From IMG/VR virus record IMGVR_UViG_2671181134_000016: a stretch of 40,220 bases of DNA; one strand, given 5' to 3'. This stretch comes from a virus (lineage: Duplodnaviria > Heunggongvirae > Uroviricota > Caudoviricetes). Position numbers and translations under genes: made by a program. The notes beneath the pieces are model-generated. The model was not told the origin of the DNA and searched no databases. It saw nothing but the letters and a program-made list of their open reading frames with translations. Numbering within the stretch: the stretch's first letter is position 1; every line of letters begins with the position of its first letter. This document shows, in pieces, positions 1-40,220 of the stretch.

Positions 1-567
1 ATGATCGAAAAAATTCTTGCAACTCCTGAGTTAACTGCTTTACTTCGTGATGAAGTCGAAGAAAATAATGTGTTTGTCAAATTGGATGCTGATTTTTATC
101 AGGATAACGGAAAACTAGATTGCCAAAAAATAATCAATCTTTCTGTGGATTCATATTATAATTCGCTTCGGTTGCCTATTACACCTCCTTCACCAGATAA
201 TATTTTAGTTATTAAGCGAGGGGATAATCGTTTTGCACTTTACATAATTGAGTTGAAGAATGTTGCAAAAGTTTCCCGATTAGATGAAGAAAATATACGA
301 TGCAAGTATAAGACAGCAGTAGACGATTTCATGCAAGAGCGTTTTTCTGATAGTTTTTTAAAAGAAGATGTGAAAATTACTGATTTTAATATATGGATTG
401 TATGTAATAGATTCTCTTTTTTAGGGAAAGAACTTACTGATGAACAGTATGCAAAAAAAGTAATTAATAATGGGGTTATGGAAAAGTTACTACTATCCAA
501 ACCTTATAGGTTTAGAGGTAAAATATCTCCTATAACTTTCCAGTTAAGTGGCTCTGAAGTGTGTTAA
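1..567 (+). CDS. Hypothetical cargo protein between prophage end and int; possible PD-(D/E)xK nuclease-like motif (PDNILVI ... IIELK). May be N-terminally truncated by the window edge.
   Basis: 188-codon ORF, AT-rich relative to phage core genes; D...ELK spacing reminiscent of restriction-endonuclease-like fold; no family recognised. Confidence 0.5.
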   Translation: MIEKILATPELTALLRDEVEENNVFVKLDADFYQDNGKLDCQKIINLSVDSYYNSLRLPITPPSPDNILVIKRGDNRFALYIIELKNVAKVSRLDEENIRCKYKTAVDDFMQERFSDSFLKEDVKITDFNIWIVCNRFSFLGKELTDEQYAKKVINNGVMEKLLLSKPYRFRGKISPITFQLSGSEVC

Positions 568-1990: not shown

Positions 1991-2539
1991 TTAATTTCGC
2001 TGTCTGGATTGTTTATGTATCTTATGCAGCTCTTTAAAGCGTTCCATAAACATTCCGTAGGCATGGCCCGGTGCCAGTGGAATCACGTTGAACATCTCTG
2101 TTGCCGGGATGCCTTCCAGTACAGGCCAGAAAGAGCCATCATCAAGCCCGAGATCGCGGCGTTCGGTTGCCAGCATGATGAGATCGGCATATTTCACGGG
2201 CGTACTCATAACCGGGGGTAACCCGTATTTCTCACGGATTACGGCGTCTATTTTTTCTTCCATCTGTTTATAGTCAGGAAGAAGGCGTTTCAGTGGAGCG
2301 GGGATGTCCTGGCAATACGCTTCTGTTGCATCATGCATTAACGCTTCAAAAGCAAATTCCTGCGGTACCAGTTGGCTGCAAAGAACCGCATGTTGGGCGA
2401 CGCTGTAGAAGTGTGAAAGATGTCCTGCAAAACGACAGATATTTGAAAGGGAAACCGCGATATCGTTAATAACGATGTCGTCTTTATTTATCCTGTCATA
2501 ATAAAAATGCTTCCCAGAAAAAGTTTTAATAAATAACAT
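1991..2539 (-). CDS. HD-domain phosphohydrolase / 5'-deoxynucleotidase (YfdR-like)
   Basis: HD motif (ALMHDATEAY); about 182 aa from the internal ATG at 2539, similar in size to E. coli YfdR as I recall it. Confidence 0.75.
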   Translation of the reverse strand: MLFIKTFSGKHFYYDRINKDDIVINDIAVSLSNICRFAGHLSHFYSVAQHAVLCSQLVPQEFAFEALMHDATEAYCQDIPAPLKRLLPDYKQMEEKIDAVIREKYGLPPVMSTPVKYADLIMLATERRDLGLDDGSFWPVLEGIPATEMFNVIPLAPGHAYGMFMERFKELHKIHKQSRQRN

Positions 2540-2667
2540 TTTGTTCTCTACGTTATTTGCGCTGCACCGCACTGAATTCTGGTAAAAGGAAGCCCTCACC
2601 ATCCGGCGATTATTGAGTAAATTACGTTTCCATAAATGCCCCCACAGGGGCATTTGCAGTAATGAAA

Positions 2668-3492
2668 TCAGGCGTTGAAAGTACCAATAAAGGTTTTTAC
2701 TTTGCTGTCTTTGAATTTTTCAACAAGCAGATCACGAAATTCGTTAGCCATTTCTTCCTGCACTGCTTCCAGCTGAATAATGCGCAGAACCAGTACAGGG
2801 CGATCACCAGTGATAATGCTGAGTCGTAATTTAAACGGACGTTCTTTCAGGCCTTCAAACGGAACGCATTTAAATTCAAATGCCACTGGCATAATGTCTT
2901 TGGTCTTCGCTTCGACAGACTCCATCAGGGAGCGTTTGCCGCTGAAGTCATTGTCTTCAAAATCAGCAGTCTGGTTCGCTTCAATTGTGATTTTACGGAT
3001 CGCTGCAGCCGCTTTGGTTGCCTGAATGGCGTCACCATTAGCATCAAAGCCCACAAGGTAGTCGGCCCAGTCTTCAATCCATTCTGCCAGTGATTTCTGG
3101 GAGTTACGCTCGCCGTTAACAGACAACAGGGCAGAGAACGGTGCTGTCTTTTTCAGTTTGAGAGTGGCGGTGTTATCTGCGTGACCTGGTTCATCAATAG
3201 TACCCAGGTTAAGCACACTGACGGCACGCATATTATCAGCATCGATAAAGCAGCGGGTGCCTTCATCTGCAAGATCTTTAGAATAACGGGTAAAGTCATC
3301 GATGCTGGCAGTGGAAAGCGCACCACGGAAACGGAAGCGATTTAAATTAAATTTTTCCAGATCATGAATGCGGAAATTCTCAGGCAATGCCACAGCATCG
3401 GCACCAATCTTACTGATAATTTCATTAACACCCTGAGCAGAAATAAGGGCATGGATTTGATTAATTGCGGTTGCGTCTAAGTTCTGAGACAT
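2668..3492 (-). CDS. YfdQ-like protein (DUF2303-type prophage protein)
   Basis: 274 aa; GAGGA Shine-Dalgarno before the ATG at 3492; length and position match remembered yfdQ of CPS-53-type prophages. Confidence 0.65.
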
Positions 3493-3557
3493 AATAAGTC
3501 CTCACTATATTAAGATATTCAGTGATGAGATAAATAATCAGTTAATTAAGAACGATA

Positions 3558-3920
3558 TTAATGACCTGCTGCGCGGAGTTTTCCGTCAGGCTCACCGGCA
3601 AGAGTCAGTAATTGTCCCTGGTCTTCCTGCAGAATAGTCAGGCGACCACCGCGATTGACATACATCGGCGTTTCGGTGGTGTCTTCTTCGGAAATTTTCC
3701 CACGGTTAGTCGGGCGAACATATGAGAGTTTGTGTTTGATTTTCACACGGTTCTCATCAAATGGTTCGATTTCCAGGTTGAGTGAGACCTTACCTTTGGT
3801 TTTCGTGTTCATCACACCGGAAGCGACTTCACTGAGAACTGCGCCGATTTTGGTTTCAAATACGCCGCCGTCCAGCTCCCCGATAAATGCCTGCACATCA
3901 GTACTGCGTTCGCTAGCCAT
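3558..3920 (-). CDS. YfdP-like hypothetical protein (first gene of leftward early operon)
   Basis: Internal ATG at 3920 preceded by GAGGAG; about 120 aa; the long track ORF upstream extension has no RBS. Confidence 0.6.
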   Translation of the reverse strand: MASERSTDVQAFIGELDGGVFETKIGAVLSEVASGVMNTKTKGKVSLNLEIEPFDENRVKIKHKLSYVRPTNRGKISEEDTTETPMYVNRGGRLTILQEDQGQLLTLAGEPDGKLRAAGH

Positions 3921-4528
3921 TTTGCTGCTCCTCATCATATCGACCCTGCAAGGTCGGTTGGTTTCTCCACAAAACAGAGAAGAACACCTGCGGTGACTGC
4001 CGCCCGGATGGATTGGGTTATGAGCCCGTCGTCCGATGATGCTCTTCTCTGTTTTGTAAAAAGAGCGGTACCAGCCGGAAGCAAGGGTACAAACTGGTAC
4101 CGCCAAAGCAGTGGCTGTTGTGGTGGGGTTGTCACTCAGGCGTATGGTCAACCTGACAATCCGGTGTCCTCAACGGGGAAAGAGTAACCCCGCCATACTT
4201 ACCGCCGCGCCATTTCGCGGATTACCACAACGCTGAGAGCACTTAGCCAGTTACGGCACCACACTTTGTCGCGGCTCCATAAATGCCCTCATCGTTGCAC
4301 CCTGGTCTCTTCCCAGGCGTCAAACCGAATCGCCACGCTGGTTAGGCGTCTTATCAGCATCATCATTGACTTGCACATTCCGGCTACCTGGTTTGTTTGC
4401 CCGAGCAAGGAGTGGATTGTCCCCTTTAACGTCCCCAGACCGCTAACGACGCATGTGCCATACGCCGTGTTACAACCAAATTTTGTTAGTACCTTGTTTG
4501 TTTGTCTGGAAAGAAAGATAAAATGAAG

Positions 4529-8000: not shown

Positions 8001-8653
8001 TGAGTAATAAATATTGCCAGGCGCTGGTGGAGCTGCGGAACAAACCAGCCCATGAACTGAAGGAAGTGGGCGATCAGTGGCGCACGCCGGACAACATTTT
8101 CTGGGGAATTAACACCCTGTTTGGCCCGTTTGTTCTGGATCTGTTTACTGATGGTGATAACGCCAAATGTGCCGCTTATTACACTGCGGAAGACAACGCG
8201 CTGGCGCATGACTGGTCAGAACGTCTTGCGGAGCTTAAAGGTGCTGCCTTTGGTAATCCCCCATACAGCCGCGCCAGTCAGCATGAGGGGCAATACATCA
8301 CCGGCATGCGTTACATCATGAAGCATGCCAGTGCCATGCGTGATAAAGGCGGGCGCTATGTTTTCCTGATCAAAGCTGCCACCAGCGAAGTGTGGTGGCC
8401 GGAAGATGCAGATCATATTGCTTTTATTCGCGGGCGTATTGGTTTTGAACTGCCTGCCTGGTTTATCCCGAAAGATGAGAAGCAGGTGCCGACAGGCGCT
8501 TTCTTCGCTGGTGCTATTGCTGTTTTCGACAAGACCTGGAAGGGACCGGCAATCAGCTACATCGGGCGCGATGAACTTGAGGCATGTGGTGAGGCGTTTC
8601 TGGCGCAGGTTCGCCAGCAGGCGGAAAAACTGGTCAGGGAGATGGCGGCATGA
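8000..8653 (+). CDS. Phage DNA N6-adenine methyltransferase (Dam-type, orphan)
   Basis: NPPY catalytic motif (GNPPYSRAS); ATG at 8000 coupled to upstream stop. Confidence 0.85.
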   Translation: MSNKYCQALVELRNKPAHELKEVGDQWRTPDNIFWGINTLFGPFVLDLFTDGDNAKCAAYYTAEDNALAHDWSERLAELKGAAFGNPPYSRASQHEGQYITGMRYIMKHASAMRDKGGRYVFLIKAATSEVWWPEDADHIAFIRGRIGFELPAWFIPKDEKQVPTGAFFAGAIAVFDKTWKGPAISYIGRDELEACGEAFLAQVRQQAEKLVREMAA

Positions 8654-35857: not shown

Positions 35858-36406
35858 ATGCTTATCGGCTATGTACGCGTGTCAACAAATGACCAGAACA
35901 CGGCATTGCAGCGAAACGCGCTGGATTGCGTAGGATGTGAACTGATATTCGAAGATAAGATCAGCGGCAGAAGTCTGACAGACCGGGACTGAAGAAGGTG
36001 CTCAGGACGCTATCAGAAGGCGATACGCTGGTGGTCTGGAAACCGGATCGTCTCGGTCGCAGCATGCGGCATCTTGTCGTTCTGGTGGAGGATACGGGAA
36101 AGAGGGATTAACTTTCGCAGCCTGACCGACAGCATAGACACATCTTCGCCAATGGGGCGTTTTTTCTTTCACGTTATGGGCGCTCTGGCTGAAATGGAGC
36201 GAGAACTGATTGTCGAACGCACTAGGGCGGGCCTTGCCGCGGCTCGTGAAGAAGGGCGGATCGGTGGGCGTCGTCCAAGGCTAACAGATGAGCAATGGGT
36301 GCAGGCAGGAAGATTGATAGCTGCTGGGGAATCACGGCAGCGCATAGCGATCATCTATGATGTTGGCGTATCGACGCTGTATAAAAAATTCCCGGTTAAT
36401 TGTTAA
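35858..36406 (+). pseudogene. pin: Pin/Gin/Hin-family serine DNA invertase disrupted by two compensating frameshifts (-1 near 35969-35977, +1 near 36091-36094)
   Basis: N-terminus MLIGYVRVSTNDQNT and C-terminus RERGINFRSLTDSIDTSSPMGRFFFHVMGALAEMERELI are in the same frame; the middle (DRPGLKKVLRTLSEGDTLVVWKPDRLGRSM) is in another frame; stop at 35990 in the start frame. Confidence 0.8.
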
Positions 36407-36560
36407 CAGATGCCGCAGTCTCGCCATATGCAAGAGCGGACTGCGGCAGGCAACAGAGTGTTCATGCCCACATTGCCGACAGAAAGGATAGCAGAGAAAA
36501 GAGAAGGTGGAATTGTCAGGTGTTTCACCATTAATTCACCATCGGCAAATTGCAGGTATA

Positions 36561-36590
36561 AAAAAACCAGCCTTAAGAGGTTGGTTTTAT
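36561..36590. terminator. Putative bidirectional terminator after the invertase region
   Basis: A-run, imperfect stem CCAGCC/GGTTGG, T-run. Confidence 0.4.
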
Positions 36591-36720
36591 TGGGGAATTT
36601 TGGTCGCACGAGAGAATTTGAACCTCCGCCCCCTGACACCCCATGACAACAAGCAATAATATGTATAACATGGGTTTTTACATGACATATAATAAATTAA
36701 TTTTTGTAAAGGGAAATCTT

Positions 36721-37681
36721 ATGGATTCAAGAAGATATTTGCATACTGTAATATTAATTGCTGGTATAGTATTTATATGTATATTGGTTATATACTTAAT
36801 TTATCCAAAGGTGATATTTACTATCAGTGATAACTATTTAAATCCATTGGTTTTAATAGCGATGGTTTTGTCGTTTTCCTCAGTAGTGCTGTTATTTATA
36901 AAGTATTTAAATAAGGATATTGGCAATGATCATTCTAAAAAAGAAACAGCACAGAATTATGCCATTGAACTGAAGAAAGAACTAGAAAGAATAAATGGGA
37001 GACTTGAGGCAATAGATAGGCCCATTGCTGGAAAATCCAGTGATATCATACTAAGTGATGCGGAGAGAGCAGATTTTATTGAAAGGGCGAAAAAGAAAAT
37101 TGCAGGTGAAATGATAATTAATGCATCAGAAAGTTTAAAAAAAGAGATGCAACACATTAAAGAACAGTTAAGTATTAATGAGCATTATGAAGATATGGTT
37201 TACAGAATCAAAAAAGAAATAGATAGACTTAACAGGCGAGGTGGAGCTAACCTTGGCATTGGTGCTTCAATCGCTTTTTTTGGAATAGCGTATCTGGGTT
37301 ATGTTGTTTCAAAACAAACTGTCACGACCGATGTAATTAATTATCTGATTCATATGTTACCTCGAATTTCTTTTGTATTAGTTATAGAGGTTTTTGCATA
37401 TTTTTTTTCTAAAGTTATATAAAAATGGTTTTGATGAGGTAAAATATTTTCAAAATGAATTGACAAATATTGAGGCAAAAGTATTGGCCATTAAATTTTT
37501 AAAAGATGTTAAAAATGAAGATTTAATGGCTGAAGTTATAAAAAATCTAATGACAACAGAGAGGAATTTTATATTATCAAAAGGACAGACGACTGTGGCA
37601 TTAGAAAAAGAAAAAATCAAGGGGCTTGAAGATAAAAATGCTTTATCTATTATAAAGGAGTTAATTAAGTTAAAAAGTTAG
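36721..37681 (+). pseudogene. AT-rich membrane / coiled-coil protein of unknown family, interrupted by a +1 frame change in a T8 homopolymer (37401-37408)
   Basis: ATG at 36721 with AAGGGA upstream; 2 TM + coiled coil + 2 TM; deleting one T in the T8 run joins both ORFs into about 320 codons. Confidence 0.5.
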
Positions 37682-38198: not shown

Positions 38199-38529
38199 AT
38201 CATCATTAAGGCTGGAAAATTTTCACCAATGAAGGTTGCTGTTTTCTGTAAGCTTTTGAGGGTACAGCAATGAGAATTATGAAGTATTGGAGAAAAATAA
38301 ATTCAACTAATTGATTACACTATATAAAATGCATGATTTAAATTCTCTCTTTAGAGTGAACCTACTGAATAGTGTTAGCTGTCGATTTTGACCAAAAAAG
38401 GGTTATCAAAACCCAAAAACATATATTGATAATCAGTGGGTTAGGGGAATGCCGATAGTCAGTTGGTTAAGTGTGAATTGGTGGAATTATACTTACATAT
38501 CAAATTGTTGGTATTAGTCTTTCTAAATA

Positions 38530-38694
38530 ATGTTACGCCATATGGGCTGGACTGAAGCCGCAGACCTGATTGTTAAAGGTATGGAAGGCGCAATCAATGC
38601 GAAGACCGTAACCTATGACTTCGAGCGTCTGATGGAAGGCGCTAAACTGCTGAAATGTTCAGAATTTGGTGACGCGATCATCAAGAACATGTAA
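38530..38694 (+). pseudogene. icd: 3' fragment of isocitrate dehydrogenase gene (icdC-like attachment-site remnant)
   Basis: Encodes [54 protein letters not shown], the remembered C-terminus of E. coli Icd; in-frame stop immediately upstream shows it is a detached fragment. Confidence 0.85.
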
Positions 38695-38717
38695 TCACTA
38701 CATGTGTTTAATATTGC

Positions 38718-39815: not shown

Positions 39816-40220
39816 CTAGATTAATGGTTTATTATTTTCTACATCTTCAATATATAAAAGCGTATTATCAATGGCGTAGTAACTGCGTTTGTTATGATTA
39901 ACATCAGTAACCCACCGGAAAACGCCCGCGCCTGCTAGTGTTGAACAGTATTCCCGAAATGTAGATTTTCCGCAAATATGAAGCAATGCGGCCTCTTTTA
40001 TTTTAGCAGGGTTCTTGGTCGTACTAACTTTTAACAGGTTCCTGGTTCCTCTTAATAACAAAACCGTGTCATCGTGAGTAATAATTCTGATGTTATCCGT
40101 AGCCAGATAATAAATGTAATGTGCAATACGGTGATGTTTTAATTCTGAATAAAACCAGGAGAAGTTTTGCTCTTTTCTCACTTGCTCAAACATCTTTTGA
40201 AAAACAACGACCTGATCCAT
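39816..40220 (-). CDS. Hypothetical host protein (ycgX-like position); ATG coincides with the window end
   Basis: 134-codon ORF; gene order icd-fragment, iraM, then this gene matches remembered E. coli K-12 context. Confidence 0.5.
   Translation of the reverse strand: MDQVVVFQKMFEQVRKEQNFSWFYSELKHHRIAHYIYYLATDNIRIITHDDTVLLLRGTRNLLKVSTTKNPAKIKEAALLHICGKSTFREYCSTLAGAGVFRWVTDVNHNKRSYYAIDNTLLYIEDVENNKPLI

Follow-up and report, generated by a model that had tools for sequence, protein, structure and literature searches.

A two-gene ABC ATPase–nuclease cassette in the icd–int slot of an e14-like prophage, a probable anti-phage defence module

Introduction

WonAB, encoded by the WASA-1 prophage of Vibrio cholerae (Adams et al. 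2025), consists of an OLD-type ABC ATPase and a 16-kDa variant of the PD-(D/E)xK nuclease fold (PMC12137116). Both genes are needed, together with ATPase motif residues K34, R182, E300 and H333 and nuclease residue K71, and the system acts by abortive infection, in which translation is arrested and genomic DNA stays intact; WonB is toxic only in the presence of active WonA, and the authors suggest rRNA or tRNA as its target (PMC12137116). In PD-T4-4 an AAA_15 ATPase is partnered by a PD-(D/E)xK nuclease (Vassallo et al. 2022), and in HEC-02 an ABC ATPase is combined with a NERD nuclease, both genes being required for defence (Payne et al. 2024 preprint). PARIS, a two-gene system, is carried by prophages or satellites; its ABC ATPase, AriA, controls a separate nuclease, AriB, which targets RNA of the translation apparatus. 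In a survey of ABC ATPases, Krishnan et al. 2020 are said to have catalogued operons of the type 'OLD-ABC ATPase + novel REase'.

Here we describe a gene at the left edge of the window (the whole 40,220-nucleotide stretch of viral DNA that was analysed), which contains most of an e14-like prophage of Escherichia coli, and we compare the gene and its operon partner with these systems. In e14 itself, cargo with an exclusion role is provided by Lit, a metalloprotease that cleaves EF-Tu.

Results

An AT-rich gene convergent with int

The first gene of the window (1–567, + strand, with its ATG at base 1 and a TAA ending at base 567) encodes a 188-aa stand-alone protein with a PD-(D/E)xK nuclease fold, the predicted effector. 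At 31.7% GC, compared to 49.1% for the window and 45.2% for int, it is indeed the AT-rich 188-codon ORF of the original prediction, and it is convergent with int as that prediction had it. The int gene (591–1721, − strand) encodes a lambda-type, intE-like tyrosine integrase (Pfam Arm-DNA-bind_1 2e-37, Phage_integrase 2.6e-15; annotated intE), and next to it lies an xisE-like excisionase gene (1702–1962, − strand; Pfam Exc 1.3e-11; annotated xisE). The strong bidirectional terminator proposed to separate the ORF from int corresponds to an intrinsic-terminator-like hairpin at 572–593 (8572–8593 of locus L001, from NZ_CP075652.1) of the form TGAGGGGGA-n4-TCCCCCTCA, which has a 9-bp stem with six G-C pairs and is accompanied by a T-run on both strands. 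That stretch holds 11 terminator-like sites, compared to 1.1 expected from shuffled sequences.

Two more trivial origins had been raised for the ORF, that it continues upstream into an unrelated larger gene and that it is a housekeeping gene of the host, and neither is the case. An in-frame TGA is located 10 codons 5' of the ATG in NZ_CP075652.1 with no start codon between them, which shows that the ORF does not continue from a larger gene. Its product is represented in RefSeq by WP_024246527.1, a hypothetical protein encoded within the prophage and not by a core gene.

The ORF is the second gene of an operon

It had been cautioned that upstream partners could not be seen from a window that begins at the ATG, and a leftward extension had been proposed; the extended sequence reaches the icd attachment side and contains such a partner. 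The start of the ORF is overlapped by 4 nt by a gene coding for a 507-aa 'AAA family ATPase' (WP_024246526.1), located at L001:6481–8004 of NZ_CP075652.1, which lies outside of the window, about 1.5 kb to the left of base 1. The overlap has the sequence ATGA in the cassette of eight complete E. coli genomes (window positions 1–4, + strand), with bases 2–4 forming the TGA stop codon of the ATPase gene according to both RefSeq annotation and the sequence, and it suggests that the ATPase and nuclease genes are translationally coupled. The functional unit is a two-gene operon rather than a single ORF, so that the earlier placement of cargo next to int stands but its identification with the ORF on its own does not.

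The ATPase matches the Pfam domains AAA_15 (1.4e-22) and AAA_21 (5.3e-14), and its best PADLOC matches are AriA of PARIS (7e-27), PD-T4-4_A (1e-23) and NsnB of Menshen (1e-22), followed by HEC-02A and then by many GajA, Old and PtuA models. Five motifs are invariant in 46 ATPase homologues: the Walker A sequence G27-x-N-x-x-G-K33-S; LPASR239SGLY, within which PASR239S is the Q-loop equivalent; S341-MVSE; the Walker B and D-loop sequence IEEPEAHL-x-P at residues 386–395, which is IEEPEAHLHP in the E. coli protein; and H420-SN, containing the H-loop H420. Together these represent the OLD-type deviation of the ABC motifs, as described for WonA. A 72%-identical Enterobacter homologue of the ATPase was modelled with AlphaFold (pLDDT 80.7), and the model is best matched by PtuA of Septu and of retron I-A (Foldseek E 5e-11), with Rad50 and SMC heads being the next matches. 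Neither the ATPase nor the nuclease ORF is disrupted, and motif conservation extends over 257 relatives of the nuclease and more than 2700 of the ATPase.

A family of stand-alone nucleases with conserved catalytic-type residues

The nuclease motif reads PD66-NILVIKRGDNRFALYII-E84-L-K86, i.e. PD66-x17-E84-L-K86. Taken by itself it is weak and does not exceed chance, as D-x(10-30)-[DE]-x-K occurs in 88% of shuffled versions of the protein and the variant with PD in 13%; its significance comes from its conservation among relatives. In an alignment of 144 full-length family members, D66 is present in 143 and E84 in all 144; residue 86 is a K in 110 of them and an R in the other 34. The D...E-x-K motif singled out in the original prediction therefore falls on conserved positions of the family. 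Other conserved positions are D50 (142/144), Y53 (141/144), P62 (139/144), L85 (131/144), K102 (142/144) and F110 (97% of relatives). From these patterns, D50, D66, E84, K86 and K102 are candidate catalytic residues. The occurrence of Arg at position 86 in 24% of the members is unusual for a catalytic Lys, and K102, which lies in the following helix and is 99% conserved, may compensate for Arg86 or take part in catalysis.

A word-indexed search of 5.8 billion proteins returned only 14 clusters for the nuclease, from E. coli, Enterobacter, Klebsiella, Pectobacterium, Phytobacter, Aeromonas and metagenomes, and a HMMER profile search of 1.84 billion representatives gave 257 matches at E<=1e-3, 219 of them at E<=1e-10, such that the effector family comprises at least 257 clusters at 50% identity. 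All of the 150 matches listed are stand-alone proteins of about 115–205 aa. No model in Pfam, PHROG, PADLOC or NCBIfam matches the 188-aa protein, and when 62 diverse relatives were compared with the same libraries only scattered weak noise was seen, with no consistent model; for PADLOC in particular, there are no matches to the query and only scattered weak ones among the 62 members. Among PDB sequences, the family profile picked up a single chance match, to a ribosomal protein (E 0.28).

The predicted structure matches the restriction-endonuclease fold

We modelled the nuclease with AlphaFold2 using a 14-sequence alignment, and obtained a model with a pLDDT of 91.8 and a pTM of 0.88. The model has the alpha-beta-beta-beta-alpha-beta core of the PD-(D/E)xK superfamily: D66 directly precedes a strand formed by residues 67–72, E84 and K86 are within a strand at 77–86, and K102 is in a long helix (96–114) that is followed by a strand at 125–135. 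A conserved acidic residue is thus positioned at the start of core strand 2 and the (D/E)-x-K element in strand 3, as in other members of the superfamily. The protein has a single domain, and a separate target-recognition domain is absent. In FokI the corresponding motif is PD450-x16-D467-x-K469, and the PD66-x17-E-x-K spacing seen here is close to it.

Foldseek comparison of the model to the PDB gave nothing at E<=1e-3; the weak matches were to cap-snatching endonucleases, BspD6I, BsmI, FokI, EcoO109I, McrC and MspJI, which are PD-(D/E)xK enzymes. Structural matches with figures were Can1 (5.6), Upx (5.5), a CdiA-CT toxin (5.2), Can2 (5.1) and the BspD6I small subunit (5.0). The nuclease belongs to the PD-(D/E)xK superfamily by fold and motif, in agreement with the fold originally proposed, and the model indicates a restriction-endonuclease-fold protein whose predicted active site is apparently intact.

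An explanation in keeping with these matches is that the pair is a direct, non-abortive, restriction-like system comparable to OLD, Gabija or Septu, in which the ATPase would recognise or load on invading DNA, the nuclease would cut it, and the host would survive. Structurally, the nuclease is best matched by modules that cleave DNA (FokI, BspD6I, BsmI and McrC), and PtuA, Rad50 and the SMC heads, the best matches of the ATPase, act on DNA. However, a methyltransferase or other self/non-self marker is absent beside the cassette at 13 of 13 sites, that in E. coli included, and WonB, which has the same architecture, spared genomic DNA and blocked translation (PMC12137116). We regard a restriction-like action as unlikely.

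The cassette occupies the icd–int slot of the prophage

The start of the ATPase gene lies 167 nt beyond icd and the icd terminator, and a duplicated 3' end of icd is located on the attR side of the window at 38527–38695 (+ strand; 169 nt, 95.9% identical to L001:6146–6314 in the intact icd). The presence of icd to the left of the window and of the icd 3' copy at its right places the cassette inside the prophage, between attL and int; the copy also marks attR, so that the last ~1.5 kb of the window (38.7–40.2 kb) is host flank. A DUF1398 ORF (39816–40220, − strand) is located in this flank. The prophage extends from inside icd to ~38.7 kb, with its left end ~1.7–1.9 kb to the left of the window. 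The slot between the prophage end and int was correctly recognised from the window, with the correction that the prophage end lies outside it by that distance. A trough in GC content (27–35%) coincides exactly with the cassette between icd and the terminator. The location of the cassette is the cargo slot of e14, inside the prophage and flanked by the icd attachment site and a lambda-type integrase gene.

It had been remarked that the window starts exactly at the ATG, and five IMG/VR prophage contigs (L009–L013) likewise start exactly at the ATG of their nuclease homologues, at the same base. The window starts there because prophage callers cut at gene boundaries, and its left edge is an artefact of prophage-boundary calling. 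Automated prophage boundaries systematically split the two-gene operon, dropping the ATPase partner and hiding it from view.

In K-12, the slot between icd and int of e14 contains ymfD-ymfE-lit. The cassette is like Lit in being cargo of the icd/attL–intE slot of an e14-like prophage; a Lit-like peptidase was rejected as an identity for the ORF, which has no sequence or fold relation to Lit and no Pfam match. The reading of the int-adjacent slot as a site for cargo is borne out by other E. coli strains, in which different cargo is found: a DUF262-domain protein and a hypothetical protein are encoded in NZ_CP015244.1 (L024 3170–4881), and a 569-aa AAA ATPase and a DNA adenine (Dam) methylase in NZ_CP143092.1 (L025 2356–4995). 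The icd–int slot of e14-like prophages behaves as a hotspot for exchangeable, defence-like genes.

A second cargo slot is present at the right end of the prophage (window 36074–37681), at a position where e14 carries mcrA. Its first ORF (110 aa) encodes a short Pin-like invertase that aligns with HTH_7 and, of Resolvase, with the C-terminal part only, and it is followed by two ORFs without a Pfam match (36643–37422, 259 aa; 37394–37681, 95 aa), which may be further accessory or defence genes.

The cassette is variably present in its prophage backbone. When bases 1–2000 were compared by megablast to 5,426 complete E. coli genomes they were found in eight, at >=99.4% identity and with the prophage integrated in icd, and about 500 genomes match only from base 607–611 onward, which corresponds to the int/xis backbone. 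This distribution bears on the question of whether the cassette serves the phage itself, in housekeeping or lysogeny (by assisting recombination or replication, for instance), as its position adjoining int and xis might indicate, or is a decaying, inactive remnant. The ~500 E. coli genomes with this int/xis backbone lack the cassette, the cassette is convergent with int with a terminator between them, it is found outside prophages in unrelated genomic contexts, and both of its ORFs are intact, with motifs conserved over the 257 and more than 2700 relatives. Either a housekeeping role or a remnant is very improbable.

The two genes are strictly paired and the cassette is mobile

We examined 12 further homologous sites, nine identified through the nuclease (in Pectobacterium, Aeromonas, four metagenome or MAG contigs, GCA_054635715.1 and two IMG/VR contigs) and three through ATPase homologues (in Serratia, Vibrio and Desulfolutivibrio) with a member of the nuclease family immediately downstream. 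The ATPase–nuclease pair is present at all 12, with an ATPase gene (460–507 aa) immediately 5' of the nuclease gene, and membership of the nuclease family at these sites is confirmed at E 1e-47 to 1e-70. The genes overlap by 4–14 nt in 10 of the 12 tabulated cassettes, including that of E. coli, and the identities of the ATPase and the nuclease to the E. coli pair co-vary (r = 0.78).

The cassettes have a GC content of 26–37% whatever the GC content of the host, even in surroundings of 57% GC, and they are mobile, lying often in prophages or in islands of toxin or Abi genes. In Vibrio the cassette adjoins a prophage integrase, in Serratia it is inside a lambdoid prophage, between the replication and the Q/lysis genes, and it also occurs outside prophages, in unrelated genomic contexts; other cassettes are located beside AbiEi, HipA, TacA, RelB/YafQ and HicB genes. 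No homologues were found by tblastn in 50,697 sequenced phage genomes or in 72,556 plasmids, and a pattern scan of GTDB species representatives, based on an alignment of the closer relatives, gave one locus only, in Aeromonas cavernicola.

The early-left region of the window (1991–4151, − strand) encodes homologues of YfdR (an HD-domain 5'-deoxynucleotidase), YfdQ and YfdP, and the Vibrio prophage copy of the cassette (L022) is similarly flanked by YfdP, DUF2303 and integrase genes. The presence of Yfd homologues beside both copies suggests a prophage backbone that is common across genera. In two metagenome contigs (L016 6580–9262 and L017 1173–3855) genes for an AAA+ ATPase, DUF1257, DUF2997 and a radical-SAM protein come after the cassette on the same strand, and these could be another defence-like cluster.

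The gene neighbourhoods and the organisation of the operon raise the possibility of a toxin–antitoxin or addiction module, in which the ATPase would neutralise a nuclease toxin and so stabilise the prophage or island with no sensing of phage. A small nuclease and a larger partner in an overlapping operon would be expected of such a module, the Pfam description of the AAA_21 domain reads 'putative AbiEii toxin, Type IV TA system', and homologous cassettes are located among HipA, TacA, RelB/YafQ and HicB genes. On the other hand, all of the ATP-hydrolysis motifs of the ATPase are invariant, which would be needless in a passive antitoxin, and in WonAB, the closest studied analogue, simple sequestration was excluded, WonB being toxic only with active WonA (PMC12137116). 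Toxin–antitoxin and defence roles can also coexist. We consider a module acting purely by addiction to be quite unlikely, somewhat more so than restriction-like action.

Comparison with described defence systems

The locus is organised like WonAB, in that it is a two-gene prophage operon in which an OLD-type ABC ATPase gene comes first and is followed by a small gene of the restriction-endonuclease fold. The ATPase shares with WonA an EEPEAHL(H/Y)P Walker B/D-loop and a PA(S/G)RS Q-loop equivalent, and the nuclease, like WonB, is a small stand-alone PD-(D/E)xK variant with the core '(V/I)D ... (C/P)D ... ELK(G/N)'. There are also differences: WonB proteins are ~140–170 aa, whereas the nuclease has 188 aa and carries additional elements at its N- and C-termini, and the ATPase, at 507 aa, has larger inserts than WonA.

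At the level of sequence the similarity of the nuclease to WonB is marginal. An hmmsearch of the family profile against nine WonB/novel-REase sequences found nothing significant, and alignment of the nuclease family to WonB with hhalign, in which WonB is represented by nine sequences only, gave a probability of 26% and, across 57 columns, an E-value of 7e-4; the VD, (C/P)D and ELK motifs are in register in this alignment. The DxYYN signature of the nuclease family is absent from the accessible part of the WonAB homologue tables (PMC12137116). Membership of WonB is not supported at the level of sequence profiles, as the family profile finds none of the nine sequences. The ATPase scores 62.6 bits with a profile of eight WonA homologues, compared to 93 bits with AriA and 82 bits with PD-T4-4_A; homology to WonA beyond the generic ABC core was rejected on account of this lower score, and judged by these profiles WonA is not a nearer relative of the ATPase than other OLD-type ABC ATPases are.

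PD-T4-4 offers a similar combination, with an AAA_15-type ABC ATPase and a PD-(D/E)xK nuclease on an E. coli mobile element, and the PADLOC model PD-T4-4_A matches the ATPase partly, in two stretches (82 bits, 1e-23). The PD-T4-4_B model matches neither the nuclease nor its 62 relatives, and membership of PD-T4-4 was rejected because this effector model is unmatched; PDDEXK_5, a Pfam domain that a review lists for PD-T4-4 and other PD systems, also does not match the nuclease. HEC-02 likewise combines an ABC ATPase with a nuclease of the PD-(D/E)xK superfamily (NERD). HEC-02A scores 61.7 bits against the ATPase, and HEC-02B matches one of the 62 nuclease family members, at an E-value of only 0.0087; membership of HEC-02 was rejected as the effector model does not match.

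The resemblance to PARIS lies in the ATPase, for which AriA is the top PADLOC match (7e-27) and is covered nearly over the full length of the model. The AriB effector is a DUF4435 TOPRIM nuclease, whereas the effector here has the restriction-endonuclease fold and no DUF4435 match, and PARIS membership was rejected for these reasons. Septu (PtuA/PtuB) and retron I-A resemble the cassette in having PtuA, which provides the closest solved structures to the ATPase model, together with a small nuclease partner. In sequence, the ATPase resembles PtuA only within the Walker B region, and PtuB, unlike the nuclease, is an HNH nuclease; with no HNH match in the nuclease, Septu membership was rejected. 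The cassette thus resembles WonAB, PD-T4-4, HEC-02, PARIS and Septu in design, and under the available models it is a member of none of them.

Discussion

The ATPase–nuclease module is most likely a defence system related in design to WonAB, PD-T4-4 and PARIS, and the ORF at the left edge of the window is probably the nuclease effector of this two-gene, prophage-borne anti-phage module. By analogy with WonAB, PARIS and Septu, and from the architecture common to ABC-ATPase/nuclease immune systems, we infer control of the nuclease by the ATPase, switching by phage, and abortive cleavage. Both genes would be co-transcribed from the icd-proximal end of the prophage, with transcription stopping at the bidirectional terminator before int, and they are probably translationally coupled through the ATGA overlap. 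In the lysogen, an oligomer of the ATPase would form a complex with the nuclease and hold or control it; an infecting phage would then supply a protein or nucleic-acid cue that is sensed through a change in the state of the ATPase, whereupon the nuclease would cleave nucleic acid and the infection would be aborted. The resulting defence would protect the lysogen population and with it the resident prophage. The target is about equally likely to be RNA of the translation apparatus, as suggested for WonB and established for AriB, or DNA, as the FokI-like structural matches would suggest.

The effector family and the ATPase clade are distinct, but within the already known class of systems with an ABC ATPase plus a nuclease. 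The chances are about even that the pair constitutes a distinct and so far unnamed defence system, with its own effector family and its own clade of OLD-type ABC ATPases, having a trigger and a nucleic-acid target unlike those of WonAB, PD-T4-4 and PARIS and serving, in E. coli, as interchangeable cargo of e14-like prophages that integrate in icd. The operon catalogue of Krishnan et al. 2020 may already contain the pair, and to a specialist the cassette would be plausible rather than surprising.

ABC ATPase and nuclease pairs (PARIS, Septu, Gabija, WonAB, PD-T4-4 and HEC-02) are becoming one of the largest classes of bacterial immunity, and the ways in which the ATPase senses phage and releases the nuclease are understood for only a few of them. 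To this class the cassette adds an effector family that is not recognised by current annotation or by defence-finder models. The cassette is small, at ~2.1 kb, and its hosts include pathogenic E. coli (STEC and ESBL isolates), Enterobacter, Klebsiella, Serratia, Pectobacterium, Vibrio and Aeromonas; in e14-like prophages, the icd–int slot that carries it is a site at which defence cargo is swapped.
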